This document shows, piece by piece, positions 19,341 through 57,644 of a stretch of DNA of 64,000 nt. The notes under the pieces are model-generated. The model was not told the origin of the DNA and ran no database searches. It saw only the letters and a program-made list of their open reading frames with translations. The stretch spans positions 62,001-126,000 of the forward strand of contig JAUCBJ010001071.1 in NCBI GenBank assembly GCA_032718475.1, read 5' to 3'. Each line of letters starts with the position of its first letter. Positions within the stretch are counted from its first letter, which is position 1. This DNA is from Nemertoderma westbladi. Taxonomy: Eukaryota > Animalia > Xenacoelomorpha. Position numbers and translations under genes: made by a program.

Positions 19341-19575
19341 GTATGAGTAGGCTTTGGTTTGGAAACCAAGGTATTGAAACCTCCGAGGTATTGAAAGTTA
19401 ATTAAAGTAATTTTTATAATGACTTGCATTCTATATAGTTTAATCTTTGGATCAAATGTTAATGTTAGAAGTAAGATGTAATCTATAAATAATTGGTTTA
19501 AAGAAATAAAATATATATAAAATGGCAAGTTTATCAAATACACAAAATCAGTCAGGTAAACATTCAATTGAATTG

Positions 19576-20979: not shown

Positions 20980-22775
20980 TTGAATTGCACATGACCAAGC
21001 AATTCAAAAACAAAACTTTCCAATATGAAATCAAGGCATTTGAACAACAATCTGTTGATACATTCTTTGAATCAATAAGAGACAAAGTTTCGATTGAAAT
21101 GCGACGAATGTTAACAAAATCATCAATCAAATTGCAAATTGTTACGGGAATAAAATTTGTACATCCTATAAAGGGAGACATTGAATTGTATTACAATAGC
21201 CACGATCAAGAATTAATACTTTCAGAAAACAACATTAATCAAGCAATAGAGTCTAAAAAAACTAAAACAATTACATGGGTTCAAGAAATGGAAGGTAGAG
21301 GGTCAGGGTTGATATTTAATGGAATCACTGAGGCTAAATTAAAATTATCTGTTTTTTCAAATATGGGTGGGTCTAGTTTTATAAAACTACCTTTTAGATC
21401 AACCTATATTGTCAATGTGAAGAATGATGATAAAAAATGTTTTCTATGCAGCATATTAGCACACATCCAACCCCAATCAGAACATAGATATCGAGTTACT
21501 AAGTATAAACCATTTGGAAATATCCTAAATATGAAAGGTATAGATTACCCAGTCACTTTAAAGTCAATTAACAAATTTGAAAAACAAAACAATTATGCTA
21601 TTAATGTATTTTGTATTGAAGATAAGAAAAGCTTCTTCCCCTTCGTATTAGTAATTTCAGATATAGAGAGCAGATAGACTTGTTGCTTCTTACAGATGGT
21701 GAGAAACAACATTATACTTTGATTACAAAATTTTCATCATTTTTAAATGGCTTCATTCAAACAAATACATCTCTTACTCACTCGTTGTTTTACTGTCGGA
21801 ATTGTCTGAGAAGTTTCTTTAAAACAGAAGGTCTACAAAAGCATGAAGAATTATTTATGGGAATAAATCAGCAAAAATCATCATGCCTATAAAAAAACAA
21901 AAATAATATTCTAAAATTTGAAAAGTATTGGTATAAGTCAAAGCTACCTTTTGTTATGCAGACTTTTGTCTTGCAGACTTTGAAAGCATAAATGTACCAA
22001 TGAACCAGAATGATCTATTATGCAAACAAATTCCTTACCAGACTGACAAAAAATTTCAAACTACAGTAAAATTTCAACTACTTTTTTACACCAATTTATC
22101 ACAAATTATCATATTCACCTAATTTTTCACTTAAAAACTGATGGATTCAAATTTTCTGAAAATAGTTCATATGTTCTGACTCTATATGAGCACAATATGA
22201 TTAGAAGTTCATACAGAGTAGAGTTGCACCAATCCAAATGGTCTGTCCAATATATTTATTGTCTTGCTGTAACTAAGATTATGTAAAAAATTGATTTACT
22301 TAAGAAATCAAACTAATAGAAAATTTGTATGGCTACTACTATATGTGAAAACATCAATAAACCAACTAGTATGGATACTGCCCAGTTCCTGACATTTGAA
22401 CAGATGGGATTGAGAACCCCGAAGTCAGCTTGCATGCATCTACTGTTAGAGAATGCCTATGAGTCTAATCTTTTGACTGATATATCAAAAGTAGATTACC
22501 TAGCAGGCCATGGAGGTAGTATGTTGCTTCAAGATGTGCCTGAATTGGAAATGTTTGTTGACGATCTTTATGTGTATTATTTATTGTATTTATTCCAAGC
22601 CACGGGGGCCCATAGTAAAATAGTAGATACATAAACAAAAAGGACATAAACAAAAAGGATATAAACAAACAAATACTTTACAAACAAATACTTTACAAAA
22701 TACATACATAGCACACTAGTAATTAATAATAAACACCGAAACTCTAATAGCAATTACGTAGTTAAACGAAAAAGG

Positions 22776-25655
22776 CTAGTGCTGGTGCAAACTAAATATA
22801 ACAGAGTAAGGTCTACATAAATTGTATACACCACCTAAGATAGTGTTGTCAGAATGTAGTATTCTATTTAATAGGCTTTGTGAGGATCTATAAGTAATGT
22901 GACAAAACATTGGCAAACGTAGTTCGCCAAAAGAAAGTGACATACTTGTAGGTTCTTCACCGGTGAGCCTAGGGATATTAAACAGTAGCCTAGCACAATT
23001 ATTGTAAGCTACCCTAATCTTATCGTACGCACGATGTGAGTAGTTCTTACTAGCCCATAGGCTGTTGCAGTATATTGGGGTACAGTAAGCACGAAAAAGT
23101 GCAGTTTTAACATAGACAGACGCATGGCAAAACTTTCTAGCCAGAGTATTCCCTCTGGCGTACAGTTGATGCATCTGTCGTGTAATATCTAGGTCATCGT
23201 CAGTGGACGAGCTAATAACGTGCCCTAAATAGTTAAACTTATCAACAGTTTCTATGTTGGAACCATACAATTTGACTCTAGCGACAGAGGTTAACGCACA
23301 CGATTTATGAATGAAGTATAAACACTTCGTTTTCTTAGTATTGAATATAATAGAGTTAGACGTAGCATAGGCTACGGCTATATCTATTAATTTCTGCAGA
23401 CCAAAAATGGAGTTTGAGATCAAACATAAGTCGTCGGCATAAATTAAGTGATTTAACCTAAGTGAACATATAGAACAACCTATACCGCTACTATTTAATT
23501 CCTTACTTAACTCATCAATGTAAATATTATAGAGCAATGGTGAAATAATACTACCTTGTCTAGTTCCGTTAGTTACAGAAAAGGATGGTGAGAAAAACCC
23601 ATCCCAACAGACACGCACTAGTTGGTTACGATACCAAAACATAATAATGCGAACAATGTATAATGGTACACCACGGTCTATCAGTTTGCGAAACAATTTG
23701 AAATGGTTGACACGATCAAACGCTTTAGATGCGTCTAACATGCATACATAAACAGAAGAATTGTTATTGAGATAGTAGTTCACTATTTCCTTCAGAGTGT
23801 ATGTACATGTTTCAGTTCCGAGTTTAGGCTTGAAGCCAAACTGGTTATATGTAGTATCTAAATATTTGAAGCAGCGTTCTAGAATTACTTTCTCAATAAC
23901 TTTACTGAGGATTGTAGACAAAGAAATGCCTCGATAGTTATCCTTACACGTCAGACTAGCCGACCTATCCTTTACAAGTGGAATGATGGTTGATTCCATC
24001 ATGGCAGCTGGCATATAGTTATGTATAAAAATAGAGTTAATTAAAAGGGCAATTGCACGCACAAGATTATAACAACATGCGTGGATTAAATGTTCTGCCG
24101 ACAATCCGTCAAGCCCAGGGGCTTTATCGGATGGAAGGCCGAGCAGTGAATCCATCACTTCGTTGTATGTAATATTAGAAAAACCAATATTAGCTGCGTT
24201 ATCAATACATGTATTAACGTATGCACTATCTGTGTCATCGTTGACACAGTTAAATAAACTCTGGAAATGATTCTTCCACATGTTAGCGATGTTAACAGGG
24301 CCAACATCATCTCCTATTCTAGTAGGTAACGGACACTTATCAGTTGTATGGCTGCGCACCTGTGACCAAAAATGTTTAGTGGAAGAATTATTTAGTAAAG
24401 CCTCCGCCATTTTATCATGTTTGATCTTAGATGCATTGCGTTTGCAATGCCTCATAGCATGCTTATACCGTGCTTTCGCGCGTAAATATTCTGAAAACAC
24501 ATTGCCTTGACGTGGTGACCCACAATTTCGCCAAAGTTTAAAAGCAGATAGTGATTTTTTGTATAAATCCTTTACATGGTCATTCCATCCTGGAATATGG
24601 CAGTGGCTGTTTGGTGTATCATTTTTATTATTCTTATTATCACCTCCAGAATGTTTAATAAAATATAAACTAGCACTACTTAACACGTTAGTTATATTGT
24701 TATATAACATGTCAATATCAGAATGGTGACATTTGCAACCAGTGTCGTTGCAATTTGTCAGATTTACCATATCGGCGGATGCCATAACCTCACCAAGCAT
24801 AAAGTTTACATGGCCAGCGTAATCGCTAGTTTTACTTGAGCTATGTTCCCAATCGAAGTGGACTGGGGGGGGATTTGGTATACTTTCAGATCCTGTGTCG
24901 GTGCCCCCACTTGGTGGTAGGGACGCCGCTATACCAAGCTGCGTTAACAGTGGCATATGGTCTGATACTGACAAGTTATATATAATTTCCACATTGGATA
25001 CTAAGTCTACACAAGATGGCGAGCACAAAACATGGTCAAGCCAGGATGTTGAACCATGTGCATCGCTAACGTAGGTAAAACTATTAGGAGGCAAAATATT
25101 TACATCATAGATACATGAATTTACAGAACAGCACCAGTCAGAGAGTTCGGTGTACCTAAAGCGTTTAGGGTCGGCATTAAAATCTCCGATTAGACAACAA
25201 TGTGAGTACTTTGTTGTTTGTAAAATGGAAGTTAATTTACCCAAACATTCACTATAAATGTTATGGTTTTCAGGGCAGTCATACGGGAGATATACATTAA
25301 TAATTAGTAAAGTCTCACCGTTGTCTAATTGTATTCGAATGCCATACATGCGTGATTCATTAAAATCTAAAATTTCCACTGCGTGGTCTAAAGACTCACG
25401 CCATAAAAATGCCAGCCCACCCTTAGGCCTACCCTGAAGCAGACCGTCAGAGTAATCACCAGCTGATAATCCGCGGGCTAGAAAGTTTTTATTTATAGTA
25501 GCCAAAAATCCCAATTCCTGCTTTGGTAACTGAGTTTCTTGGAGCAGTACGATATCACAATTATTGCACAGTTTATTTATAACCACTTGAGATTCAGGAG
25601 TACGAACTGAATTGCAGTTATAGCTGATGATATTTAAATTAGATATATTAGCCAT
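22776..25655 (-). CDS. LINE ORF2: APE endonuclease plus reverse transcriptase (959 aa)
   Basis: SYNCNS, LLQET, GDFNAD, LDHV and SDH (APE); KAPGLDG, YRGISL, QFGFK, DASKAFDRV, GTRQGS and YADDL (RT). Confidence 0.95.
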   Translation of the reverse strand: MANISNLNIISYNCNSVRTPESQVVINKLCNNCDIVLLQETQLPKQELGFLATINKNFLARGLSAGDYSDGLLQGRPKGGLAFLWRESLDHAVEILDFNESRMYGIRIQLDNGETLLIINVYLPYDCPENHNIYSECLGKLTSILQTTKYSHCCLIGDFNADPKRFRYTELSDWCCSVNSCIYDVNILPPNSFTYVSDAHGSTSWLDHVLCSPSCVDLVSNVEIIYNLSVSDHMPLLTQLGIAASLPPSGGTDTGSESIPNPPPVHFDWEHSSSKTSDYAGHVNFMLGEVMASADMVNLTNCNDTGCKCHHSDIDMLYNNITNVLSSASLYFIKHSGGDNKNNKNDTPNSHCHIPGWNDHVKDLYKKSLSAFKLWRNCGSPRQGNVFSEYLRAKARYKHAMRHCKRNASKIKHDKMAEALLNNSSTKHFWSQVRSHTTDKCPLPTRIGDDVGPVNIANMWKNHFQSLFNCVNDDTDSAYVNTCIDNAANIGFSNITYNEVMDSLLGLPSDKAPGLDGLSAEHLIHACCYNLVRAIALLINSIFIHNYMPAAMMESTIIPLVKDRSASLTCKDNYRGISLSTILSKVIEKVILERCFKYLDTTYNQFGFKPKLGTETCTYTLKEIVNYYLNNNSSVYVCMLDASKAFDRVNHFKLFRKLIDRGVPLYIVRIIMFWYRNQLVRVCWDGFFSPSFSVTNGTRQGSIISPLLYNIYIDELSKELNSSGIGCSICSLRLNHLIYADDLCLISNSIFGLQKLIDIAVAYATSNSIIFNTKKTKCLYFIHKSCALTSVARVKLYGSNIETVDKFNYLGHVISSSTDDDLDITRQMHQLYARGNTLARKFCHASVYVKTALFRAYCTPIYCNSLWASKNYSHRAYDKIRVAYNNCARLLFNIPRLTGEEPTSMSLSFGELRLPMFCHITYRSSQSLLNRILHSDNTILGGVYNLCRPYSVIFSLHQH

Positions 25656-25777
25656 TTTTTGTCATAAAAATATCATTTATATTATACAAAAATAATAACA
25701 ATATTAAAAAGAAAAAAAGGAAATATTATATATATTGGTATATATATATCTAAAAATATTCTAAAAATAATCTGGCA

Positions 25778-27034
25778 TTATTTATCCTGACCAAGCTCAG
25801 ACTCAGGCTCAGACTCTGACTCTCCGGCCATGACGCTTGTTTCAGTACCCTGGGTTCCAGTGCCCAAAGCCGCGTACCGGTTCGCATCAGCGATTACTGC
25901 GTTACTGTTTCCCACAGGAGGACTACCCGCAGTTGTAGCAGTAGAGTCTGGAACAGCTGTATTAAATCCCGTTGCGACGCGCACGGGCCTAGTGGCGCGG
26001 GGCCTTGTTTCAAAGTCGCGAATCCTCGAATAGAGTGGCCAGATACTTGGATCCAAGAGTAGAGAACGTTGATCCTCCGAACACGTTATTAAAAACGACC
26101 GAACGGGAGACTCTGCCTTTGATATGCTGTAGCAGGTGACGTCAGCAAACCCAAGAGAGTTTTTTACATGATCGAGGATAACTGCGGGATCAACATCAGG
26201 ATGACATCCTGTAAGGAAGAGTTTACGAGAAGGTTGAACCGTACGGAACCCCCCCGTACCAGTGGAGGAACCTTGAACAAACGAAGGCGCATTGGAATTG
26301 TTCGCGCCTCTTCTCACACGAGCCGCCACCGCTTGTTTCCGTGGAGGATCACGCTTCGGACGACGATAGGTGACGAGGGTATAATTATCATCGCTCGGTT
26401 GTGGATCATCACTTGGATTACGAATTACAGCAGCACTGTAGTTGCCACTGCCAGACACAGCCATACTGGTCGTGTTCGGGACAGCGGGCGCCGCCACCGG
26501 ACTATAGGTCGATTCGGCACCCGATTCGGCTAGCTCCTGTGGCAGCATCGGCACCGCACCATACGCCGCATGACTGCAGCTAGGGCGAGCCTCGAGAACA
26601 GCCAGACGATCCTGCATTACACTCATACGGTTAAGCAGCAGTGCAGTGTCCGCGTGACTAATGGCAAAGGGAGGAATGACGGTTAGATCCTTAGGTATGA
26701 ACTGGGGAAGGTGATCGCCATCCGGCCGATTAATATATCCCGCGTAATCGAAGATATCCAGGATATCTCCTACCGTATTCTTGCAAAAAAGATCGCCTGA
26801 CTGTCGTGATTTAACAAACGACTGCTTGTTCTTTTCTCTGTCGCTAACTGGTATCTTGGATAACAGGATACTTTTGGCGTCCTTGAACATGACATCGGAG
26901 AATCGTGGCCACGATTGCACTATATATATAATCGAGTCCCGTGTGTAGCCTTTTGTGTGGGACGTCCATAAGTAAGACAGAACATCGCTCTCCACATGAC
27001 TACACGGCACGGATGCTGCCGTCATTGCGTGCAA
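25778..27034 (-). CDS. LINE ORF1 (418 aa), with a short coiled coil and an RRM-like C-terminal region
   Basis: Lies directly upstream of ORF2 on the same strand. The segment KLFLTG...SFLI...LLDPSIWP..RIRDF is typical of LINE ORF1 proteins. Confidence 0.85.
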   Translation of the reverse strand: MHAMTAASVPCSHVESDVLSYLWTSHTKGYTRDSIIYIVQSWPRFSDVMFKDAKSILLSKIPVSDREKNKQSFVKSRQSGDLFCKNTVGDILDIFDYAGYINRPDGDHLPQFIPKDLTVIPPFAISHADTALLLNRMSVMQDRLAVLEARPSCSHAAYGAVPMLPQELAESGAESTYSPVAAPAVPNTTSMAVSGSGNYSAAVIRNPSDDPQPSDDNYTLVTYRRPKRDPPRKQAVAARVRRGANNSNAPSFVQGSSTGTGGFRTVQPSRKLFLTGCHPDVDPAVILDHVKNSLGFADVTCYSISKAESPVRSFLITCSEDQRSLLLDPSIWPLYSRIRDFETRPRATRPVRVATGFNTAVPDSTATTAGSPPVGNSNAVIADANRYAALGTGTQGTETSVMAGESESEPESELGQDK

Positions 27035-29374
27035 TCAGGAATGAAGCCTGATGCAGTGATTTTACTGCTGTACTATCTGACTGTTGCTCTGTTAGGCCTA
27101 TATCTGTACAGCTGTACAGATATGTGTAATGTTTTGTGAGTATGCTGTAAGTACTAGTATAAAGTTCTTACGTAATATAAACATGGGTGTATGGGTATCT
27201 TCGAGAAGATCAAGTTGTGAGAACCAAAAGTTCTGTCATGTTGACAACTGGAAGGTTTGGGACTGCCTCTTATATTGTCGAGAAGTTGAGGAGGGAGGCA
27301 ACACAAACAATCGGGAAGAACTGTGATGACTTTATACACACAAAAATATTAGCCTCTGTACCATTACAATCTCATGGAGTGATAATGCAAACAGTGCATA
27401 AAATTGAAAGAGAGATGAAGGATAAATATATAAAAAACTGGAAAAATCTGGAACAAAAGGAACCTATTGCTGTCTTTGTTGCAAAGTTGGATGTATCTGT
27501 AATCAAGCTAGATGATCTGCAGGAGCACTTGGCTGAATTTGGTAGAGTACTGCAGACATGTGGATGGGGAATATACTCTGTTGACTACACAAAGGACTTT
27601 GCTGGAACCCTCGATAGGAAGGCAATAGTCAAACATCTAGTGGAAACAAAGGGTTGGAGGTTGGAAGGGACATTTCAAGCAGCATTGGAGGGTGATCAGC
27701 AAACAATTTTGGAAAACACTTCATCTGTGGGAAATCATGTGTTGACATACATCACATCTTGGGGCGGAAATACAATGAGAGTGAAGCTGTACAACAAAAT
27801 TGTTTGCCAGTTTGAAGCATGAGAAGTATTGGAGAATTTTGGAGGGCATTTGGCAGACTACGCTGATTGCAGGAACCCGGTCCTTCGGAAATCCTTAGAA
27901 CATCCATTGATCCAGCAATATGGATGTACAAGAGTTGAGATATCCTTGTACTCTATGAATTACATATCTAGAGATCTTGGTGTGGAAGTGATGAGAAGTG
28001 CATTAGAAAACATACAGCCATATGAGGGATTATTTGCACACAAGAACTGGGAAAGTTTCTGGAGTGAAGGTGCAGTGTAAGTTTGATATACACGAAAATA
28101 AACAAAGATGGGAGAAGGCTATAGTATGGAGTTGTTCAGAATTTGGATTTCGAGGTTGTCCTATATTTTGCTTCCAAATTAGAAATCAAAATGAAATTGA
28201 AAAGGGCACAGAAATAGCAGAAATAGCACAGAAATGCTATTTCAAAGACCCCACTGCAAGAACAATACTTTGCTCATCGAAACTACCAACTCAGTGTAGG
28301 TCAGTTCAAGCAAGAATTCCGTTGGAAGAAATGTTGCCACCAACGGATTTCATAGAGTGGACATGGAGGCAAGAGCCTTGCAAATCTTTGGGAACAGTAA
28401 AAATGCAATGGAAACTACAAGAGGTGCCTGAATACTTGCAAACACATCAAGTATCTTGGTTGTCAACGTGGAAAAGAGCGCAGAGGAACATTGATATTGT
28501 AGATTATTTAGAATGTGAGAAATGGAGACAAGAGGCACTGCAAAGAAGTGCAAGAAATCGAGAAGAAGTAGCCCTGATACACAAAAGGTTGCTGGAGTAC
28601 AAGAAAAGAAAACAACATGAAATGAACAAAAGGAATATGTTTTGAATCTATTGAAGCACACTCCCATAAAAAAAATTTGTGAGTTGGATGGTAAGAAACC
28701 ATTAAAAGTAATAGTGCTTGGATTTCGACAAGCAACTGGACCCTACCAAAGATACGAATGTTGCTTTCAATTGATGATGAAATTTCCAAGATATATTCTA
28801 ACCGAGGCTTGGAGTGTGTTTTAGATGAATTGAGAGATGCTTTTCACAGAGCCCAAGAGCAAACTACAAGAGAAAATTATTTTTTGGTTGACGGAGCGCT
28901 GGAAATTGAAATTCAAGCACCCAAACAGTTCAATAATGAGCAGCAGCAGTTAATCATTTGGTATCCAATTAAATTATTGAGAAGCCCAATTGAAGGCGAA
29001 CAACAAAATATACAAGAAATATTGAAGAAAGTCGAAAATGAATATGAGAAGGCCAAGTCCATGTGTTTGGTTGAATATCATGCAAAGGAAAAGAGGAGTG
29101 TGAGAAAAGTGCTTGAATTGGAAGAAGGTGAGTATAAATGTATAGCATATTGGAACCAGAGCTATAGAGGAAAAGTGCGTCATATATTATACTTGCAGGA
29201 TAAAGCTGGTGAATCGGCAAGACCAGTGTATGGCTATTTCTCGCAGAAAGAAGTTGAGGAAATGCATTGTGATTTGTCCACAGTATTATCTCCATTGCTA
29301 GTGAAAGTTGGAAAGAACAAAGACAACACCACAGAAGAACAAGGATAGAATCATCACTTTAGCCCACACTCTGC

Positions 29375-29509
29375 TTAGCACAACAACCATGTCAGAGCCC
29401 TAGGATTAGCACAACAACCGTGTCAGAGCCCTAGGTTTAGCACAACAACCGTGTCAGAGCCCTAGGTTTAGCACGACAACCGTGTCAGAGCCCTAGGTTT
29501 AGCACGACA
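29375..29509. repeat. 31-bp tandem repeat (~4 copies) overlapping the Rep-like ORF stop codon; also at 40471-40605, and single-copy in unit 3
   Basis: Unit TGTCAGAGCCCTAGGTTTAGCACAACAACCG. Confidence 0.9.
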
Positions 29510-30018
29510 GTGATAATTGTATACTCAACTTATGTACAGTAGGCCTACATAAACTGAAACTGAGAACAATTTTGCCTATTAAATAAAAGTGGTGCATACT
29601 GCACATATATGCAACAGACACCATCTGATGAAGAAAGCAATATAGTCCTATAGTCCGATTCAAAAAATGCATACAGAGTGTTTTGTATTACGAGTGGTAA
29701 GGCGACCTTTCTATATGGTTTGGGGGATACGGTTGGTATATGGCAGTTGGGGGGAAAAGGTCATGTTATGGCGGGGAAAGTATTTTGACCACCAAAAATG
29801 GTATTTTGCAAACACAAAATCTTAGCAGGTTAAATATTTGGGCAACTATGCATTACATAGATGCATGCGAAAACGTTACGAAAAAATGGCAAGAAAGAGA
29901 CCCAATAAAGCCTGGCAAAATGCAGAGAAATGTCGAAAATGTTGCTAAAAAGTGCTAAATTTTGAAAAATGCCAAATCAAACCCCCCAAACCATTGCAAA
30001 ATACTGAAAAATTCTGAA

Positions 30019-30216
30019 CATTTTCCCCCAAATCATGCGTTTTAGAGGCTTTTTGCCAAGCATCGGACTTGGCAAAAGTGACATTTTCCCCCAAATCATG
30101 CGTTTTAGAGGCTTTTTGCCAAGCAACGGACTTGGCAAAAGAGACATTTTCCCCCAAATCATGCATTTTAGAGGCTTTTTGCCAAGCGTCGGACTTGGCA
30201 AAAGGACATTTTCCCT
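30019..30216. repeat. Three 63-bp repeats, each with a perfect 10-bp stem-loop; also at 41107-41304
   Basis: TTTTGCCAAG-(7-nt loop)-CTTGGCAAAA three times, bracketed by a ~40-bp direct repeat AATGCCAAATCAAACCCCCAAACCATTGCAA. Confidence 0.9.
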
Positions 30217-30467
30217 GAAACACCCGTTTCAGTATAGAGGCGCCCTACGCCTCTGAGTTCCGTTTTTCTCTGTATTTCTGTGCAGTTTCGAAAAGCGGAG
30301 TAAGTTTACAACATAACGAGAATGCCAAATCAAACCCCCAAACCATTGCAACATACTGAAAAATGATGAAAATGATGTGCAAAAGGGACATTTCCCCCAA
30401 AAACACGCGTTTGTAATTGATTTTGATTTGATTTATATTATAGTATTATATTTGTATTTGATTTTCA

Positions 30468-31286
30468 TTACAGAAAAGCCAGAAAGCCTTGTATGAAGTT
30501 TCGGAGATTTTGCATGGCGTCCTCGATGCTGACCATCTGAAACCGTTGGTGCTGATTATAGTGGTCGGTACAGACTCCAAGGATTCCAACTTCCAGAGTT
30601 CTTGCGTAGGGAGTTCTCTTTATGGTTGTTATAATCCCCGCCACCTCCCACTCGTAGAAGTCACGCACCGCGGACGGATCCTGTGCTCTTTTGGGGCCAC
30701 ATGTGCTGGTAGACAACTTGGTATTCTGGGGTTGGGACACGTGGACGTAGTTGACTGCAGTCGGGGAGGGAAACCCTTCCTGTGCTCCGTGATTTTTCTG
30801 GTTGTATTGGTCTGAAAGGAGAAAGTAGGAATTTTGCTATACCTCAACCTCCGAAGAAATTTTTGCCTATTTTTATGGACACACGTGAAAACACTCTTCA
30901 TTTTATTCTCATTTTTGAATGTACCTTTATTGCAGCTCTGAAGCCATCAAACAATGAATATAGTCCCGTGTCAAGGACGAATAATAGGCCTACGTCAATC
31001 GAATATCCTTTTTCAACCTATCAAAAAAAATAACTTTACTATAAAGAGATTTGAAAAGATTGTTGCCGAAATCCAAAGGGTGGCTTACCGTGAACAACGA
31101 TGTCATTTTCGTCTTGCTGTAACACGACGACTGTTCCTATATCCATGTGCGCCGACCCTGTTCCAAATTTGAAGAAAAATTTCAGATTCTGGGCTTCGTG
31201 CAGGATCTTTTTTGTTGCTCCGTAGCTGTCGAACGAACTCGAAAAGGCAGCTCTTACCACCAACACGTTTTTTTTTTATTGTGAGG
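30468..31286 (-). CDS. Putative two-exon gene of unknown function, convergent with the Rep-like ORF; 5' end broken at 31286
   Basis: Donor G|GTAAGC at 31088 and acceptor TTTCTCCTTTCAG| at 30812 join ORFs 31039-31266 and 30468-30740 in frame (IVVH-D-QYNQKNHG). Confidence 0.55.
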
Positions 31287-37354: not shown

Positions 37355-37559
37355 TTTTTCACTTAAAAACTGATGGATTCAAATTTTCTGAAAATAGTTC
37401 ATATGTTCTGACTATATGAGCACAATATGATTAGAAGTTCATACAGAGTAGAGTTGCACCAATCCAAATGGTCTGTCCAATATATTTATTGTCTTGCTGT
37501 AACTAAGATTATTTATAAAATTGGTTTACTTAAGAAATCAAAACTAATAGAAAATTTTT

Positions 37560-45300: not shown

Positions 45301-45408
45301 TCAGTCTCAAAGAAACCTCACAGTAGTAGTAAAAAGGGATAAATGTGCGGAGGTCGATTTCTTGTCAGTCTCAAAGAAACCTCACAGTAGTAGTAAAAAG
45401 GGATAAAT
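42375..45408. repeat. 64-bp satellite array 2 (~47 units)
   Basis: Same unit as array 1, with the same ordered variant units near the right end. Confidence 0.98.
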
Positions 45409-46651: not shown

Positions 46652-48079
46652 TTTTTCACTTAAAAACTGATGGATTCAAATTTTCTGAAAATAGTTCATA
46701 TGTTCTGACTATATGAGCACAATATGATTAGAAGTTCATACAGAGTAGAGTTGCACCAATCCAAATGGTCTGTCCAATATATTTATTGTCTTGCTGTAAC
46801 TAAGATTATTTATAAAATTGGTTTACTTAAGAAATCAAAACTAATAGAAAATTTTTATGGCTACTACTATGTGAAAACATGATTAAACCAACTAGTATTG
46901 ATACTACCCAGTTCCTGACATTTGAACAAATGGGGTTGAGAACCCCGAAGTCAGCTTGCATGCATCTACTGTTAGAGAATGCCTATGAGTCTAATCTTTT
47001 GACTGATATATCAAAAGTAGATTATCTAGCAGGCAATGGAGGTAATATGTTCCTTCAAGATGTGCCTGAATTGGAAATGTTTGTTGATGATCGTTATGTA
47101 ATAATAATAATAATAATAATATAATAATATCTAAGATGTGTATGGGTATCTTCGAGAAGATCAAGTCGTGAGAACCAAAAGTTATATCATGTTAACAACT
47201 GGAAGGTTTGGGTCTGCCTCTTATATTGTGGAGAAGCTGAGGAGGGAGGCAACACAAACAATCGGTAAGAACTGTGGTGACTTTATACACACAAAAATAT
47301 TAGCCTCTGTACCATTACAATCTCATGGACTGATAATGCAAACAGTGCATAAAATTGAAGGAGAGATGAATGATAAATATATCAAAAACTGGAAAAACCT
47401 GGAACAAAAAGAACCTATTGCTGTCTTTGTTGCAAAGTTGGATGTATCTGTAATCAACCTAGATGATCTGCAGGAGCACTTGGCTGAATTTGGTGAGTAC
47501 TACAGACATGTGGATGGGGAATATACTCTGTTGACTACACAAAGGACTTTGCTGGAACCCTCGATAGGAAGGCAATAGTCAAACATCTAGTGGAAACAAA
47601 AGGTTGGAGGTTGGAAGGGACATTTCAAGCAGAATTGGAGGGTGATCAGCTCACAATTTCGGAAAACACTTCATCTGTGGGAAACCATGTGTTGACATAC
47701 ATCACATCTTGGGGCGGAAATACAATGAGAGTGAAGCTGTACAACAAAATTGTTTGTCAGTTTCAAGCAGGAGAAGTATTGGAGAATTTTGGAGGGCATT
47801 TGGCAGACTACGCTGATTGCAGGAACCCTGTCCTTCGGAAATCCTTAGAACATCCATTGATCCAGCAATATGGATGTACAAGAGTTGAGATATCCTTGTA
47901 CTCTATGAATTACATATCTAGAGATCTTGGCGTGGGAGTGATGAGAAGTGCATTAGAAAACATACAGCCATATCAGGGATTATTTGTTCAGCCAAGCGGG
48001 AGGAATCACTGGCTAGCTCTAGCAAAAAAAAAGGTTTCTGGAGTGAAAGTGCAGTGTAAGTTTGATATACAAGAAAATA

Positions 48080-51000
48080 GACAAAGATGGGGGAAGATGG
48101 GAGACAAAGATGGGAGACAAAGATGGGAGACAAAGATGGGAGACAAAGATGGGAGACAAAGATGGGGGACAAAGATGGGGGACAAAGATGGGGGACAAAG
48201 ATGGGAGACAAAGATGGGAGACAAAGATGGGAGACAAAGATGGGAGACAAAGATGGGAGACAAAGATGGGAGACAAAGATGGGAGACAAAGATGGGAGGC
48301 AAAGATGGGAGACAACGATGGGAGACAAAGATGGGAGACAAAGATGGGAGACAAAGATGGGAGACAAAGATGGGAGACAAAGATGGGAGACAAAGATGGG
48401 AGACAAAGATGGGAGACAAAGATGGGAGACAAAGATGGGAGACAAATATGGGAGACAAAGATGGGGGACAAAGATGGGAGACAAAGATGGGAGAAAAAGA
48501 TGGGAGACAAAGATGGGAGACAAAGATGGGAGACAAAGATGGGAGACAAAGATGGGAGACAAAGATGGGAGACAAAGATGGGAGACAAAGATGGGAGACA
48601 AAGATGGGAGACAAAGATGGGAGACAAAGATGGGAGACAAAGATGGGAGACAAAGATGGGAGACAAAGATGGGAGACAAAGATGGGAGACAAAGATGGGA
48701 GACAAAGATGGGAGACAAAGATGGGAGACAAAGATGGGAGACAAAGATGGGAGACAAAGATGGGAGACAAAGATGGGAGACAAAGATGGGAGACAAAGAT
48801 GGGAGACAAAGATGGGAGACAAAGATGGGAGACAAAGATGGGAGACAAAGATGGGAGACAAAGATGGGAGACAAAGATGGGAGACAAAGATGGGAGACAA
48901 GGATGGGAGACAAAGATGGGAGACAAAGATGGGAGACAAAGATGGGAGACAAAGATGGGAGACAAAGATGGGAGACAAAGATGGGAGACAAAGATGGGAG
49001 ACAAAGATGGGAGACAAAGATGGGAGACAAAGATGGGAGACAAAGATGGGAGACAAAGATGGGAGACAAAGATGGGAGACAAAGATGGGAGACAAAGATG
49101 GGAGACAAAGATGGGAGACAAAGATGGGAGACAAAGATGGGAGACAAAGATGGGAGACAAAGATGGGAGACAAAGATGGGAGACAAAGATGGGAGACAAA
49201 GATGGGAGACAAAGATGGGAGACAAAGATGGGAGACAAAGATGGGAGACAAAGATGGGAGACAAAGATGGGAGACAAAGATGGGAGACAAAGATGGGAGA
49301 CAAAGATGGGAGACAAAGATGGGAGACAAAGATGGGAGACAAAGATGGGAGACAAAGATGGGAGACAAAGATGGGAGACAAAGATGGGAGACAAAGATGG
49401 GAGACAAAGATGGGAGACAAAGATGGGAGACAAAGATGGGAGACAAAGATGGGAGACAAAGATGGGAGACAAAGATGGGAGACAAAGATGGGAGACAAAG
49501 ATGGGAGACAAAGATGGGAGACAAAGATGGGAGACAAAGATGGGAGACAAAGATGGGAGACAAAGATGGGAGACAAAGATGGGAGACAAAGATGGGAGAC
49601 AAAGATGGGAGACAAAGATGGGAGACAAAGATGGGAGACAAAGATGGGAGACAAAGATGGGAGACAAAGATGGGAGACAAAGATGGGAGACAAAGATGGG
49701 AGACAAAGATGGGAGACAAAGATGGGAGACAAAGATGGGAGACAAAGATGGGAGACAAAGATGGGAGACAAAGATGGGAGACAAAGATGGGAGACAAAGA
49801 TGGGAGACAAAGATGGGAGACAAAGATGGGAGACAAAGATGGGAGACAAAGATGGGAGACAAAGATGGGAGACAAAGATGGGAGACAAAGATGGGAGACA
49901 AAGATGGGAGACAAAGATGGGAGACAAAGATGGGAGACAAAGATGGGAGACAAAGATGGGAGACAAAGATGGGAGACAAAGATGGGAGACAAAGATGGGA
50001 GACAAAGATGGGAGACAAAGATGGGAGACAAAGATGGGAGACAAAGATGGGAGACAAAGATGGGAGACAAAGATGGGAGACAAAGATGGGAGACAAAGAT
50101 GGGAGACAAAGATGGGAGACAAAGATGGGAGACAAAGATGGGAGACAAAGATGGGAGACAAAGATGGGAGACAAAGATGGGAGACAAAGATGGGAGACAA
50201 AGATGGGAGACAAAGATGGGAGACAAAGATGGGAGACAAAGATGGGAGACAAAGATGGGAGACAAAGATGGGAGACAAAGATGGGAGACAAAGATGGGAG
50301 ACAAAGATGGGAGACAAAGATGGGAGACAAAGATGGGAGACAAAGATGGGAGACAAAGATGGGAGACAAAGATGGGAGACAAAGATGGGAGACAAAGATG
50401 GGAGACAAAGATGGGAGACAAAGATGGGAGACAAAGATGGGAGACAAAGATGGGAGACAAAGATGGGAGACAAAGATGGGAGACAAAGATGGGAGACAAA
50501 GATGGGAGACAAAGATGGGAGACAAAGATGGGAGACAAAGATGGGAGACAAAGATGGGAGACAAAGATGGGAGACAAAGATGGGAGACAAAGATGGGAGA
50601 CAAAGATGGGAGACAAAGATGGGAGACAAAGATGGGAGACAAAGATGGGAGACAAAGATGGGAGACAAAGATGGGAGACAAAGATGGGAGACAAAGATGG
50701 GAGACAAAGATGGGAGACAAAGATGGGAGACAAAGATGGGAGACAAAGATGGGAGACAAAGATGGGAGACAAAGATGGGAGACAAAGATGGGAGACAAAG
50801 ATGGGAGACAAAGATGGGAGACAAAGATGGGAGACAAAGATGGGAGACAAAGATGGGAGACAAAGATGGGAGACAAAGATGGGAGACAAAGATGGGAGAC
50901 AAAGATGGGAGACAAAGATGGGAGACAAAGATGGGAGACAAAGATGGGAGACAAAGATGGGAGACAAAGATGGGAGACAAAGATGGGAGACAAAGATGGG

Positions 51001-52600
51001 AGACAAAGATGGGAGACAAAGATGGGAGACAAAGATGGGAGACAAAGATGGGAGACAAAGATGGGAGACAAAGATGGGAGACAAAGATGGGAGACAAAGA
51101 TGGGAGACAAAGATGGGAGACAAAGATGGGAGACAAAGATGGGAGACAAAGATGGGAGACAAAGATGGGAGACAAAGATGGGAGACAAAGATGGGAGACA
51201 AAGATGGGAGACAAAGATGGGAGACAAAGATGGGAGACAAAGATGGGAGACAAAGATGGGAGACAAAGATGGGAGACAAAGATGGGAGACAAAGATGGGA
51301 GACAAAGATGGGAGACAAAGATGGGAGACAAAGATGGGAGACAAAGATGGGAGACAAAGATGGGAGACAAAGATGGGAGACAAAGATGGGAGACAAAGAT
51401 GGGAGACAAAGATGGGAGACAAAGATGGGAGACAAAGATGGGAGACAAAGATGGGAGACAAAGATGGGAGACAAAGATGGGAGACAAAGATGGGAGACAA
51501 AGATGGGAGACAAAGATGGGAGACAAAGATGGGAGACAAAGATGGGAGACAAAGATGGGAGACAAAGATGGGAGACAAAGATGGGAGACAAAGATGGGAG
51601 ACAAAGATGGGAGACAAAGATGGGAGACAAAGATGGGAGACAAAGATGGGAGACAAAGATGGGAGACAAAGATGGGAGACAAAGATGGGAGACAAAGATG
51701 GGAGACAAAGATGGGAGACAAAGATGGGAGACAAAGATGGGAGACAAAGATGGGAGACAAAGATGGGAGACAAAGATGGGAGACAAAGATGGGAGACAAA
51801 GATGGGAGACAAAGATGGGAGACAAAGATGGGAGACAAAGATGGGAGACAAAGATGGGAGACAAAGATGGGAGACAAAGATGGGAGACAAAGATGGGAGA
51901 CAAAGATGGGAGACAAAGATAGGAGACAAAGATGGGAGACAAAGATGGGAGACAAAGATGGGAGACAAAGATGGGAGACAAAGATGGGAGACAAAGATGG
52001 GAGACAAAGATGGGAGACAAAGATGGGAGACAAAGATGGGAGACAAAGATGGGAGACAAAGATGGGAGACAAAGATGGGGGACAAAGATGGGAGACAAAG
52101 ATGGGAGACAAAGATGGGAGACAAAGATGGGGGACAAAGATGGGAGACAAAGATGGGGGACAAAGATGGGAGACAAAGATGGGAGACAAAGATGGGAGAC
52201 AAAGATGGGAGACAAGGATGGGAGACAAAGATGGGAGACAAAGATGGGGGACAAAGATGGGAGACAAAGATGGGAGACAAAGATGGGAGACAAAGATGGG
52301 GGACAAAGATGGGAGACAAAGATGGGAGACAAAGATGGGAGACAAAGATGGGGGACAAAGATGGGAGACAAAGATGGGAGACAAGGATGGGAGACAAAGA
52401 TGGGAGACAGAGATGGGAGACAAAGATGGGAGACAAAGATGGGAGACAAAGATGGGAGACAAAGATGGGAGACAAAGATGGGAGACAAAGATGGGAGACA
52501 AAGATGGGAGACAAAGATGGGAGACAAAGATGGGAGACAAAGATGGGAGACAAAGATGGGAGACAAAGATGGGAGACAAAGATGGGAGACAAAGATGGGA
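48080..52600. repeat. 13-bp minisatellite (GACAAAGATGGGA), ~348 copies
   Basis: Homogeneous core with variants at both edges. Single-copy at the equivalent sites 28101 and 38861. Confidence 0.99.
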
Positions 52601-53402
52601 GAAAGCTATATTGTGGAGGTTTTCGAGGTTGTCCTATATTTTGCTTCCAAATTAGAAATCAAAATGAAATTGAAAAGGGCACAGAAATAGCACAGAAATG
52701 CTATTTCAAAGACCCCACTGCAAAAACAATACTTTGTTCATCGAAACTTCCAACACAGTGTAGGTCAGTTCAAGCAAGAATTCCGTTGGAAGAAATGTTG
52801 CCACCAACAGATTTCATAGAATGGACTTGGAGAAAAGAGCCTTGCAAATCATTGGGAACAGCAAAGATGCATTGGAAACTACAAGAGGTGCCTGAATACT
52901 TGCAAACACATCAAGTATCTTGGTTGTCAACGTGGAAAAGAGCGCAGAGGAACATTGATATTCTACATTATTTAGAATGTGAAAAATGGAGACAAGAGGC
53001 ACTGCAAAGAAGTGCAAGAAATCGAGAAGAAGTAGCCCTGATACACAAAAGGTTGCTGGAGTTTAAGAAAAGAAAAGAGCAGTTAAATGAACAGAAGGAA
53101 TATGTTTTGCATCTATTGAAGCCTACTCCCATACAAAAAATTTGTGAGTTGGATGGTTAGAAACCATTACAAGTAACTGTGCTTGGATTTCGACAAGCAA
53201 CTGGACCCTACCAAAGATACGAAATGTTGCTTTCGATTGGTGGTGAAATTTCCAAGATATATTCTAACCGAGGCTTGGAGTGTGTTTTAGATGAATTGAG
53301 AGATGCTTTTCACAGAGCACAAGAGCAAACTACAAGAGAAATTTATTTTTTGGTTGATGCAGAGCTGGAAATTGAAATTCAAGCACCCAAAGAGTTCATT
53401 AA

Positions 53403-54957
53403 CCCTATTAAACCCGGGGGGGGGGGGTCAATATGACCCCCCCGTGTTTTTTTTATTATAATTCTGAAACAAACGCAGTTGGGAATCTGAAATTTTATGA
53501 CTTTTCCTAAAAATCTATTGCCTTCCTAGTAGTGAAAACCGTTTTCAAAAATATTCGGTACTTTTCGAGTTATAGCACCATTTTTTAACCCTACTTTTGG
53601 CACTTTTTTTGAGACGTTTTTTGAAAATTACATTTCATTAAATATGAATTGTAACATATCTATTTTTGATTTACACCGGTTTTTTGGTGTTAGAAATTTG
53701 ATGGAATTCATATAAATTGATTTAGAAATTTCAAACTTGTTTTTTTCGGTGGGTGACAAATTTTGGTGCCAGCACCAAATTTTGAATTATGTCAATTTTG
53801 TAAATTGATTGTTTGAAACGTGTTTTTTACGCAATTGGGGTTTTTTGGGGTTCTGGATTCGATGAAATATATACGAGTTGCACCAAGCGTATCAAACTTG
53901 TATTTTTCGGTGCTGTGTGCAAATTTTGGTGCTAGCACGAAATTTTGAAAATTCATTCGATAGATAAAATTGCTTGTGACAATTTATTTCTTGCGTTTTA
54001 GAGGTTTATGGCTGTTCTGAATTCAATGGAATAAATAATTATCGAACTAGACATCTCAAACTTGTATTTTTCGGATGTGGGTGCAAAATGTGGTGCTAGC
54101 ACCAAATTTTGAAAACCATCAAATATATCAATTGATTGTGTCACCTTGTTTCTTGCGTTATACGGGTTTGTGATGGTTCTGAATTCAATGGAATCAGTAA
54201 AAATTTCATAAGAGTTCTCAAACTGGTATTTTTCGCCAGTGGGTGAAAATTGTTGTGCCAGCACCAAATTTTGGAAAATATGGAAATTTATCAGTAGATA
54301 GTATCACCTTGTTTCTTGCGTTATACGGGTTTATGAGGGTCCTGAATCCGATGGAATCCATAAAAACAACACTGGACATCGCAAACTTGTACTTTTTGGT
54401 GATGTGTACGAAATTTGGTGCTAGCACCAAAATTTGCCAAATTACGCCGAAAAATACAAGTATCAATGATCTGGCATATTAGAAATGTATTCCATTAGAA
54501 TCAGCGCCCTCGAAAACCTGAAAATGTGAATTTATAGCATCGTATAAGTGAATTAAAAATTTTGTGTTCTACCTGAAAAGTGCTGGTTACTTGTTTTTTT
54601 CATTTTTTTCCTACGCAGAGAGGACTAAACAGCCATTTATGGTAATCATATCATTTTTAAATATTTTCCAATGTATTTTGCACCCCAGAAAACCTGTATT
54701 GAAAAATAATTAGCCGAAAATGTAACTTTCAAATTTTGTGAAAATTGTGCACTACTTGTAATTTTGGTGCTGCAATATAACCACCCCAGTACATTTTTTC
54801 GAAAATTTTTTTTTTCGGTCGGATCCAGACAAGTGATACCTACGTACAAACAAAAAATCAGACGTTTTCGTAAATATTTGTAGATTTTAGAGGGGGGGGG
54901 TCAATATGACCCCCTCCCGGTATTTGTACAGCATTTTATAGCCCGGTACTAATAGGG
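53403..54957. mobile_element. Non-autonomous piggyBac-like element
   Basis: TTAA TSD at 53399-53402 and 54958-54961. Termini CCCTATTA...TAATAGGG, subterminal GGGGGGTCAATATGACCCCC palindromes, and five internal ~163-bp repeats with TTTGGTGCTAGCACCAAA. Absent from units 1 and 2. Confidence 0.9.
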
Positions 54958-57644
54958 TTAATGAGCAGCAGCAGATAATTATTTGGTATCCAATTAAATT
55001 ATTGAGAAGCCCAATTGAAGGCGAACAACAAAATATACAAGATAGATTGAAGAAAGTCGAAAATGAATATGAGAAAGCCAAGTCCATGTGCTTGGTTGAA
55101 TATCCTGCAAAAGAGAAGAGCAGTGCAGTGTGAGAAAAGTGCTTGAATTGGAAGAAGGTGAATATCAATGTATAGCATATTGGAACCAGAGCTATAGAGG
55201 AAAAGTGCGTCATGTATTATATACCTGCAGAACAAGGATGGTGAATCTGCGAGACCAGTGTATGGCTATTTCTTGCAGAGAGAAGTTGAGCAGATACAGT
55301 GTGATTTGTCCACAGTATTATCTCCATTGCTAGTGAAAGTTGGAAGAACAAAGACAACACCACAGAAGAACAAGGATAGAATCATCACTTTAGCACACAC
55401 TCTGCATAGCACAACAACCATGTCAGAGCCCTAGGTTTAGCACAACAATGGTAATTGTAGACATAACTGAAACTGAGAACAATTTTGCCTATTAAATAAA
55501 AGTGGTGCATACTGCACACATATGCAACAGACACCATCTGATGAAGAAAGCAATATAGTCCGATTCAAAAAATGCATACATTGTCTCATACAATAAATTC
55601 CGAAACTTTTAGAGGATTTAGTGCAGCATGCGTTTGTCCTGGATTTTAACAAATTTTGACCAACAAAAATAGTATTTTGCAAAAGTAGGCTAAATCTCTT
55701 GCCATAACACAAAATCTTAGCAGGTTAAATATTTGGGCAACTATGCATTTACATAGATGCATACTTACCTGCACTGCAGTCAAGTATACTTACCCGCACT
55801 TTTTACGGGCATGAGTACATGCATACTTACCCACACTTTGAGCAGCAAGTTGTCAAAATGAAGCCTAAATGCATACCTACCTGCAATTTAGCATCCCGGA
55901 GCTCATGAATTCTTACTTTTGCATGGATAAATTTTGTTAGTTATGCCTTGATTAAAAATTTGTCACCTATCGACTGTGTCCTGGGGAGAACATCCCGGGT
56001 GATGTGAACCGGCCTTAACAGTAGATTATATCAAAGGTTTCGTTTTTTGAAACCTCGCAGGTTTCAGCTGGTGCAACCCAAAGCCTAATGAAAACTGTCA
56101 TATAACCCTAACCATGGGTATAACCCTAATCATATGAGGCCATGTCAGGTCAGGTCAGGTATTCTAGGTCATTGATCAAGAAAACTTGCCACCTCCATGC
56201 AGCATAAAGGAGGTGCCACCTGTAGCTGCATAGACCCTCTTACTAGGGCAAATCTGGTCCTGTAACTAGGACCCCCTTCGTTCTGGGATAAGGACGCCCT
56301 TGGTCCTGGATTAAGGACCCATATACTTGGCTGCAGGGGTATATGGCCTGACCAGGCAGATGGTGATCTACCAATGGCTGGTCAGGAGTAGAGTGTTCTC
56401 ATGTCCACTCTGAGAGCACTTCACTGCGACCTGCACCTGGCAGCAAGGGTACAGGGCATGACCCAGCAGATGAGCTGCAACAGCCAATGGTGGGTCATGT
56501 GCGCCAGAGTAGATATGGGTGATGGGCCTCATATCTGACTCCATTGCGACACCCACCCTGTGGAATGGCAAACCAGGGTGTGGGATTTGCCCCGAGAGCT
56601 GAGATATGAGGCCATAATCATTGAAATTTTGAGGAATTTCGCTTTGATTATGGCCTCATATGACATCGACATATTGTACTCTTCATTCTACGTAGATCAC
56701 AGTATAGATAAAGGCTACAGTAATGTTATTCAATGTTTAAATTACGAATTGTATGTTTTTAATTGCTGAAAGCGACTACTAGAATCCACTTTTTTTTTGG
56801 GGGGGGGGGGGGGGGGGGGGAGGAGGAGTGGTCATGAAATTTTTAATGCACATGCTCTCACTGTTCGCGCTTTCAGACCTTTAGCAGTTTAACCTGCCAA
56901 ATTTAGGTGCTTCTAGGTTATAAATCGACTTTAGCCTGGATACTTTGGATACACTACATTAGCCGAAGCCAGCCTATGCGCGACAATTCACCCGCTGGAT
57001 ATACCCGGGAGACTGGATTCGGAAGCTCTGACCTTATTGCGGTGTAGGCCTACTGTATTATTCGATTGATCGTTAATATATAATCTCTGACAAATATTAT
57101 TCACTTTCGGGAAATATCAACAGTTCCTTTAGGACGTGGCGCTCTAAGTATGTAAACAGAGTTATGACTTACACTAAACACAACGGGATGGCTAATGATT
57201 CACGTATAAAGCGCATTCTTTAGGAGATGCTTTGTTATCTGTCACAATCATGCACACTACCGCACAATGCTGCACACCGATCTGCCGACCTTCACTAATT
57301 TTAGTCACATATAAAGAGAACAGCAACCGACACATGTAGTGCCTATGAAATAGCATTAGATTCACTCCAAAACCACTTTAATGTAAGTCGCAATTGCTAT
57401 ATGTAACCTGTCTCTTACCTTCAGTATATCAAGAAGATTGGGGTTTTATGATTATTTATCGATATTATCCAAATATAATAATATTCCATCAACTGATATA
57501 ATTAATAACCGACAGTAAATAGCAGTAAAAATGCGGTGTTTGTAGGTGACAATATGATTTGTAACAATATGAATTGCGTTGATAACAGTTATACGTTTCT
57601 ATGATCAAAGCCTACTAATGTTTGGCTAAAGTCTGAAACATAGA

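Follow-up and report, generated by a model that had tools for sequence, protein, structure and literature searches.

The analyzed window, i.e., the whole 64,000-nucleotide stretch of Nemertoderma westbladi DNA, harbors what are probably decayed copies of a multicopy animal element with a fixed 5' end, encoding a predicted Rep_trans nickase, copied by the rolling-circle route and joining itself to the left arm of Polintons. The combination of a predicted nicking enzyme with a fixed start repeatedly joined to polB suggests a likely new rolling-circle transposon that would parasitize Polintons. The window contains three copies of the Rep ORF on the same strand (starts at 22329, 37560 and 46857), arranged in three units as follows:

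19341–22328, plus strand: upstream arm of unit 1, a protein-primed polB of Polinton type represented by its 5' part (tblastn to pPolB proteins)
19576–20979: Merlin/IS1595-type transposon inside the unit 1 arm (DDE_Tnp_IS1595, E 1e-8; 44-bp inverted ends)
22329–22573, plus strand: N-terminus of Rep copy 1, including FVDD at 22554, which holds the first conserved Asp
22574–27186, minus strand: LINE retrotransposon in Rep copy 1 (RVT_1, E 2e-31; Exo_endo_phos, E 3e-13)
27187–29417, plus strand: the rest of Rep copy 1 (DYTKD at 27583, KLYNK at 27784, TRVE at 27928)
29375–31286, no strand assigned: 3' region of unit 1, containing tandem repeats of 31 bp and 63 bp and, on the minus strand, a possible exon lacking homologs
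31287–36112, plus strand: 64-bp minisatellite, 75 copies, (AGT)3 opening each repeat
36280–37330, plus strand: Polinton polB stub of unit 2 (tblastn 36465–37327, E 4e-45)
37560–40499, plus strand: Rep copy 2, a mosaic of units 3 and 1
40471–42374, no strand assigned: 3' region of unit 2, sharing 99% identity with its unit 1 counterpart
42375–45409, plus strand: second 64-bp (AGT)3 minisatellite, 47 copies
45577–46624, plus strand: Polinton polB stub of unit 3 (tblastn 45762–46624)
46857–55448, plus strand: Rep copy 3 with two interruptions
55407–55762, plus strand: final stretch of unit 3 that resembles the 3' region of the other two units

The original prediction had assembled an ORF of ~850 aa from these three copies. 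The ORF is real: the pooled pieces cover residues 6–858 of an intact natural homolog of 859 aa, and the motifs FVDD, VAKLD, DYTKD, KLYNK and TRVE follow in the same order in each copy. The independence of the copies did not hold. Over 36103–38730, unit 2 shares 99.7% identity with unit 3, and over 39350–42378, it shares 99.0% with unit 1 (92–96% in the remaining pairings). Being a 99% mosaic of the other two units, it does not count as a separate copy: the window has only two independent ones, and the argument for a concatemer from three is ruled out. Judging by these identities, unit 2 is either a recent duplication or an assembly mosaic of the two older copies. Copy 1 is split by the LINE (an endonuclease and RT ORF plus an upstream ORF, with boundaries taken from unit-to-unit comparison) and disrupted further on by stops and frame changes; copy 2 carries a TAA microsatellite (37802–37832), a piece of an RT (about 38900–39370) and frame changes; copy 3 is interrupted twice, by a 13-bp tandem array (48079–52602, 348 copies) that arose through expansion of the gene sequence itself, and by an insertion made of 163-bp repeats (about 53403–54958).

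The 5' part of a Polinton-type polB, overlooked in the original prediction, precedes every Rep copy in the window, and the (AGT)3 array precedes two of these stubs. In unit 1, polB matches pPolB proteins with PF03175/PF02945 (tblastn, window 21111–21958, E down to 5e-39) and is cut off soon after the first exonuclease motif; in unit 2, the first polB match lies ~350 nt downstream of the minisatellite. The (AGT)3 at the start of each repeat is the 5' end motif of Polintons/Mavericks (PMC8097293); a Polinton-type (AGT)n end lies before the polB stub in the window. An internal hairpin of the minisatellite was considered and rejected as not significant (z −1.2). Two further features suggested earlier were not upheld. 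The AATAAA presented as a downstream signal is found ~180 nt past the ORF and is uninformative, since this region has it 20 times within 25.5 kb. The spliced partner gene (41556–41924 and 30468–30836, minus strand) is unsupported: none of its five candidate homologs, only 62–200 aa in length, reached E ≤ 0.01, and its exon is missing from unit 3 and had no matches in 39 metagenome loci.

The search for relatives elsewhere, as proposed, revealed intact multicopy homologs of ~860 aa. Matches were obtained for 28 of 610 candidates, many of 850–890 aa, and for 1,171 clusters in a profile search at E ≤ 1e-3; the 39 metagenome loci came from 61 pattern matches. Megabase contigs carry several copies each, many of them disrupted. 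As judged by the dN/dS of 0.09–0.24 in 11 of the 15 pairs formed by six intact ORFs (the other four being saturated), the family is under purifying selection. The animal context is indicated by records of Elysia crispata among the relatives and by host exons in the flanks of some copies. Of 57 candidates from viral contigs, none matched the Rep, and searches of viral contigs with RepSTK1, the three polB stubs and the fixed end gave no match. In 185,579 prokaryote genomes, one of 196 candidates matched; it sits on a contig of 1.5 kb from a symbiont MAG and is a probable contaminant. Scans of the Rep family with Pfam, PHROGs and NCBIfam, its PDB sequence searches and an Atlas search of a window fragment returned no useful match. 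The window family is very likely a multicopy animal mobile element, widespread and previously undescribed.

The terminus was resolved at one side. In a first family of relatives, nine loci have a common sharp start after a T, preceded by five different upstream sequences, of which three come from separate positions within a single polB and one is the element's own downstream module. In a second, related family, eight proteins have one common junction with seven upstream sequences, three of them VSR-type polB; the two-frame fit at this junction embraced 16 of 20 codons, and the best of 1,000 shuffles gave four. These data show a fixed end in the two families along with varying junctions inside polB. 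The motif of this end is not recognizable in the window. Neither empty sites nor target duplications nor circles were seen among the short contigs of the relatives, and no exact terminal repeat was present among the 24 contigs listed of 39. The 3' end is variable among the loci, with shuffled small cargo ORFs, and a long 3' hairpin is the stopping point of four contigs. An ORF is present upstream of L008 and L010.

A truncated Polinton polB thus stands before the gene in three element lineages, including that of the window, with the junction point varying in two of them. At these junctions, polB runs in sense orientation and is cut within its 5' part, protein-level junctions being biased to same-strand coding flanks. 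A pPolB match at E ≤ 1e-3 was found in 5 of 40 loci, with two more (L009 and L019) added by weaker tests; in L027, polB is downstream and antisense. The N-terminal extension of P0195, which has a polB-like look, matched at E 0.13 only and was left out of the counts. The many loci lacking polB and the existence of host-gene flanks could be expected if the element were an independent rolling-circle transposon of the Rep_trans type, comparable to Helitrons and Replitrons but non-HUH, whose polB junctions stem from a few founders in abundant Polintons or from the favor of a polB promoter. The same can be said of L001 and L002, which have, in place of polB, a common start at a 166-bp hairpin with differing flanks (similar hairpins are located upstream in L028 and L033). 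This explanation is nevertheless rather unlikely in view of the three polB positions in each of the two families, together with the window, all in sense and in the 5' part, and of the failure to recognize any other Polinton gene at the junctions. The Polinton association is more plausibly a part of the element's life cycle, for which the odds appear fairly good.

The AlphaFold model of an intact relative (pLDDT 85; pTM 0.83) comprises a TBP-like domain (residues 55–355), a coiled coil (538–609) and two beta-rich C-terminal domains. The latter are likely OB folds of the ssDNA-binding kind, as suggested by SSB and LEF-3 among the structural matches (rows without ranges) and by the secondary structure. 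Next to TBP, the Rep_trans initiators RepSTK1 and RepDE were among the top matches of the TBP-like domain. The search of 48,161 chains yielded TBP at Z 6.9 (rmsd 4.7, 151 aligned), RepSTK1 at Z 6.5 (rmsd 6.2, 181 aligned) and RepDE at Z 5.8 (rmsd 7.2, 171 aligned), the whole-domain matches at the top having middling Z of 5.8–7.1. All structural matches stayed below Z 8, and Foldseek against the PDB gave none at E 0.001 or better. In a second structural look, TBP or Rep_trans occupied 40 of the 41 best rows of a redundant list; the full-length fold search was dominated by coiled-coil matches. The range starts (54/1 and 55/39) place D62 on D9 of RepSTK1 and D46 of RepDE, provided that the alignment is ungapped.

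The D/D/Y/E residues claimed earlier proved to be nearly invariant in 57 relatives: D62 in 55, D206 in 56, Y276 and N277 in all 57, K278 in 56, R323 in 55 and E325 in 54. D62, D206, Y276 and E325 are all on predicted strands (270–277 for Y276). The order of D62, D206, Y276-N-K and R-x-E325 is the counterpart of that of the Rep_trans motifs N', I, III and IV as described in PMC5714925. When the motifs were scored over 347 positions, III was best at exactly Y276 and IV at exactly E325, N' ranked 6 and I ranked 20; motif II (T/SxY/ExG) was not recognizable (rank 184), and the Arg of motif I (RxD) was absent, position 204 being S, C, Q or D. Among D, E, Y, H, K, R and C, only D62, K173, D206, D210, K274, Y276, K278, R323, E325 and Y329 are conserved at ≥90% in 55–355. 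The earlier statement that HUH motifs and helicases are lacking was borne out by the scans of the window ORFs and full-length relatives, which detected no such family; in the domain, no His is conserved at 90%, and the Tyr is on a strand, not in a helical YxxK.

The profile-profile comparison with Rep_trans was not significant: hhalign against 10 Rep_trans proteins gave a probability of 0.3–1.2% in a wrong register, with 3 of 60 block shuffles scoring equally, and the ordered four-motif score, with motif I misplaced, was attained in 300 shuffles of each kind by 57 column shuffles and 7 block shuffles. Since the family scans also lacked a PF02486 match, the protein is filed as Rep_trans-like and not as a PF02486 member. 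The core of the original prediction, a Rep_trans-type animal mobile element, is supported by the predicted TBP-like fold, the conserved residues, the multicopy state and the fixed end, against the middling Z and the non-significant profile-profile result. The missing sequence link to Rep_trans, the TBP scores equal to or above those of the Reps, and the iridovirus and VETF-like proteins among the viral structure matches could also speak for a DNA-binding or transcription-factor domain, like that of the early-transcription-factor large subunits of large DNA viruses, being, together with the ssDNA-binding domains, cargo of Polintons or viruses. This possibility seems improbable: the conserved residues form a catalytic-type set arranged as in Rep_trans, an element with its own cutting enzyme is expected to show such a fixed end next to varying flanks, and the gene was on none of the viral contigs scanned. 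It is likely, based on the model, that the Rep protein is a non-HUH DNA-nicking enzyme of the bacterial-plasmid type with Rep_trans-type catalysis. An endogenized extrachromosomal replicon, i.e., a plasmid-like satellite of Polinton viruses replicated or packaged via a borrowed Polinton end and not integrating by itself, overlaps with the preferred explanation and could account for the head-to-tail units, the Polinton end motif with the polB stub, the long 3' hairpin and the shuffled cargo, but is quite improbable given the lack of exact terminal repeats among the 24 contigs listed of 39, the copies adjoining host genes and the absence from the viral contigs scanned.

With the Rep_trans/MOBT enzymes (PF02486; pT181-family RepC/RepD, RepSTK1, inovirus RstA/G2P), the animal Rep shares the predicted two-lobed TBP-like sheet, the order D, D, Y-x-K, R-x-E and the Tyr on a strand. 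It differs, apart from the motif and Pfam distinctions above, in the Tyr–Glu spacing (~50 residues vs. 17–30), in ~500 extra C-terminal residues (the coiled coil and the likely OB folds) and in residing in animal genomes. The archaeal Rep-Arvir (RepSNJ2, DUF7845) is described as a rolling-circle initiator whose TBP fold was found by structure only, with a Tyr and three acidic residues (PMC13107129). It resembles the animal Rep in these respects and differs in being archaeal, with a KHYYM motif and a wHTH domain; the family scans of the relatives gave no DUF7845 match, and no sequence link to Rep-Arvir was found. In Helitrons, as in the relatives of the window element, the 5' end is fixed and the 3' cargo is variable. 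They feature an HUH nuclease fused to a helicase, neither of which is seen in the window element. Helitrons are reported as rolling-circle transposons of eukaryotes that insert at AT or TT in a specific orientation (PMC10288648). Replitrons, like the proposed window element, are eukaryotic Rep transposons without a helicase, but possess an HUH Y1 Rep and short direct terminal repeats and occur in plants, algae and protists. The stub is the 5' part of the pPolB of Polintons/Mavericks, and the array opens with their (AGT)2 end motif. Unlike Polintons, the window element has only this stub and the left-end motif, and no full pPolB or paired terminal inverted repeats; no polymerase domain was matched in the window, and no integrase, ATPase or capsid was recognized among the window ORFs scanned. 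The Rep gene is not among the Polinton core genes in the published account consulted.

In the preferred explanation, a metal would be held by D62, D206 and E325, and Y276 would nick the fixed end and remain bound to it, whereas the displaced strand would be held by the OB folds. Since no helicase is encoded, unwinding would be supplied by the host or by the strand-displacement replication of Polintons. The Tyr-bound end would then be joined to a 3'-OH ending in T. The resulting unit would consist of the Polinton end, the polB stub, the Rep gene and variable cargo, and such units could be arrayed in head-to-tail fashion, the arrangement seen in the window. Two routes would yield the same junction: the element end is joined onto the left arm of a Polinton, or a copy situated before a Polinton end is read through, with termination and circularization following.

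According to a 2026 paper (PMC13107129), Rep_trans enzymes seem confined to bacteria, with an archaeal branch added, and in the published accounts consulted, eukaryotic rolling-circle transposons use HUH enzymes. No eukaryotic Rep_trans element was found in the openly accessible papers searched. A tentative extension is that the family is the first eukaryotic Rep_trans-type rolling-circle superfamily, widespread among marine invertebrates and living as a Polinton satellite, which ligates its Tyr-bound end to nascent left-arm strands and borrows the origin, the replication and, perhaps, the virions of Polintons, the truncated polB being scars of active Polinton replication. If true, a TBP-fold tyrosine nickase in a large animal family would represent a new class of eukaryotic transposases and complete the spread of this fold across the three domains of life. 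An element that repeatedly attaches itself to the left arms of Polintons would exemplify a novel form of element-on-element parasitism, and its junctions would provide a readable trace of where Polinton DNA lies exposed while it is being replicated; this is relevant to the unsettled question whether Polinton replication is viral in mode.

The window consists of repeat-rich animal-type DNA, in which the family scan revealed LINE and Merlin-type elements, and harbors three copies of the Rep gene, all situated on the same strand and representing one shared ORF:

Start 22329, Rep copy 1
Start 37560, same strand, Rep copy 2
Start 46857, same strand, Rep copy 3

The motifs FVDD, VAKLD, DYTKD, KLYNK, and TRVE are all present in each copy, and the pooled pieces of the copies cover residues 6–858 of an intact 859-aa relative. 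A LINE splits the ORF in copy 1; the interruptions of copy 2 are a microsatellite plus an RT fragment, and those of copy 3 a 13-bp array plus an insertion of 163-bp repeats. The 5′ half of unit 2 (a unit comprises a polB stub, a Rep copy, and a 3′ region) is 99.7% identical to unit 3, and its 3′ half is 99.0% identical to unit 1; the remaining pairings display identities of 92–96% only. Unit 2 either arose by recent duplication or is a mosaic created during assembly. Since it is nearly identical to the other units in its two halves, only two copies are independent; the original prediction of three copies of one ORF holds for three same-strand copies with five shared motifs but not for their independence. 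Two further parts of it are abandoned: AATAAA, proposed as a polyA signal, occurs 20 times in 25.5 kb, and the proposed exon of a spliced partner gene is without any homologue.

The array inside Rep copy 3 (48079–52602) comprises 348 copies of the 13-bp unit, similar to the gene’s own sequence at the expansion point, and its frames are open for >1,200 codons on both strands. A perfect 24-bp palindrome (27100–27123) lies close to the LINE 5′ end. A Merlin/IS1595-type DNA transposon (19576–20979) is bounded by 44-bp inverted ends and apparently flanked by an 8-bp target duplication. A BEL/Pao-like LTR retrotransposon (gag-pol-integrase, as read from the ORFs) is represented by inverted partial copies, 87–91% identical, at 1946–12004 and 60210–64000, and also at 358–2354 vs. 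15912–17915; inside it, a cysteine-rich ORF of ~630 aa or more occurs in opposite orientations (11598–14592 and 57589–60578), with one weak zinc-knuckle hit as its only family match.

The AlphaFold models (full intact relative, pLDDT 85; its first 355 residues alone, pTM 0.83) predict that a two-lobed sheet domain is followed by another alpha/beta domain, then by a coiled coil, and finally by a pair of beta-rich domains. Among 48,161 chains searched, the modeled first domain matched TBP (Z 6.9, rmsd 4.7, 151 aligned), RepSTK1 (Z 6.5, rmsd 6.2, 181 aligned), and RepDE (Z 5.8, rmsd 7.2, 171 aligned); BamC tied in score over half of the domain only, and no match reached Z 8. In a second structural comparison, TBP or Rep_trans proteins occupied 40 of the top 41 rows, a list holding many redundant TBPs, and Foldseek returned RepSTK1 with a probability of 0.77 (E 0.018). 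Thus, the anticipated resemblance to Rep_trans structures was recovered in that RepSTK1 and RepDE are among the best matches, but the scores are middling and TBP scores equally high. Viral structure matches included phage SSBs, baculovirus LEF-3, the inovirus G2P replication protein, and VETF-like proteins; the SSB matches probably belong to the C-terminal domains.

The residues D62, D206, Y276, N277, K278, R323, and E325 (numbering of the intact relative), each retained in 54–57 of 57 relatives, account for the majority of the charged or Tyr residues that are conserved in the domain. Rep_trans proteins are described as carrying the ordered series D, RxD, YxK, and RxE, whose Tyr is located on a strand (PMC5714925); these residues are invariant in a 10-protein Rep_trans alignment. 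In the scan of the family profile, motif III scored best at Y276 and motif IV at E325 (each rank 1 of 347), with motifs N′, I, and II at ranks 6, 20, and 184. If the aligned ranges are ungapped from their starts, D62 would fall on D9 of RepSTK1 and D46 of RepDE (the latter position according to PMC13107129). The profile–profile comparison suggested with the original prediction gave no significant hhalign match to Rep_trans, and the combined ordered motif score was equalled in 57 of 300 column shuffles. Accordingly, a Rep_trans-like mode of action is likely, yet the protein is not classified within PF02486.

A query with a 233-aa uninterrupted stretch yielded 28 relatives among 610 candidates; at E ≤ 1e-3, a 22-sequence profile retrieved 1,171 clusters, of which 309 also passed 1e-30, and fragments are numerous among them. 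Metagenomes contributed 39 Rep loci, and none of the 57 candidates from viral contigs was a Rep relative. The single match among 185,579 prokaryotic species, a 1.5-kb contig in a symbiont MAG, is read as host contamination. Elysia crispata is the only animal named among the relatives; the flanks of the loci include exon-like host sequence, and the clusters hold several Rep copies per contig, many broken. Among six intact ORFs, dN/dS was 0.09–0.24 in 11 of 15 pairs (some copies being only a few percent apart), the other 4 being saturated.

In the first family, nine loci share a sharp start ~220–240 nt before the ORF, always after T and preceded by five distinct upstream sequences: three are different points of one pPolB 5′ region, one is the element’s own downstream module, and one is without a match. 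Downstream of Rep follow shuffled small ORFs and then a host gene (one locus) or a long hairpin, found at four contig ends (z −13); in the metagenome locus L011, an AGTAGT motif lies near the end of the 3′ region. In the second family, eight proteins share one junction with seven different upstream sequences, three of which stem from a polB that bears C2H2 and VSR domains (with E 0.002, the Vsr match is weak); pPolB2 genes of this type are described in mollusc Polintons (10.1101/2023.08.22.554363). In the window, a pPolB stub precedes every Rep copy, and an array starting with (AGT)3 precedes the stub in two units; (AGT)2 is reported as the commonest Maverick 5′ end, with gene modules pointing inward (PMC8097293). 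The Rep element is repeatedly associated with the left arm of Polintons. Several observations run counter to this: pPolB was detected at E ≤ 1e-3 in only 5 of 40 loci, many with short flanks; L027 carries polB downstream and antisense; and the loci L001 and L002 start at a long hairpin, with similar hairpins occurring upstream in other loci.

In three loci, the Rep gene is preceded at a distance of 870–1,110 nt by a long hairpin (L001:620–785, L033:3994–4119, L028:77–222). That of L033 has AGTAGT at its start and ACTACT at its end, like a miniature Polinton; the L001 hairpin carries the two motifs in swapped positions and marks the point where L001 and L002 begin matching. Inverted repeats of ~140 bp flank the gene in L003 (348–485/4421–4558) and L029 (288–428/2307–2446). 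A second ORF follows it in L003 (3692–4393) and L021 (1809–2534), with a similar helix-turn-helix-like start and no confident Pfam match. TTYGACAAC boxes, which recur in forward and inverted orientation close to the fixed end upstream of the ORF (L006–L012, L016, L019, L027, L028), are candidate Rep-binding sites; none occurs at the corresponding place in the window. In L006–L019, differing small coiled-coil ORF modules begin right at the Rep stop codon, a cassette-like shuffling between 95–98% identical copies.

Mechanistically, Y276 would nick at the fixed end in a metal-dependent manner, the OB-like domains would hold ssDNA, and unwinding may be supplied by the host or by Polinton replication. 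The Tyr-bound end could then be attached to a 3′-OH whose last base is T, frequently within the left arm of a Polinton, and the resulting units (Polinton end, polB stub, and Rep gene) could stack head to tail. Joining onto the left arm and read-through with circularization would yield the same junction. The full explanation, a Rep_trans-type rolling-circle element with a recurring Polinton left-arm link, is considered moderately probable.

Helitrons and Replitrons are described as employing HUH enzymes (PMC10288648), unlike the predicted Rep_trans-type enzyme here. According to PMC13107129, Rep_trans was considered confined to bacteria before 2026, when an archaeal branch joined it. A eukaryotic Rep_trans element was not found in the open literature, Repbase and subscription journals lying outside this scope. 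The Rep family is a real, apparently undescribed family of animal mobile elements and likely represents the first eukaryotic rolling-circle element of the Rep_trans type.
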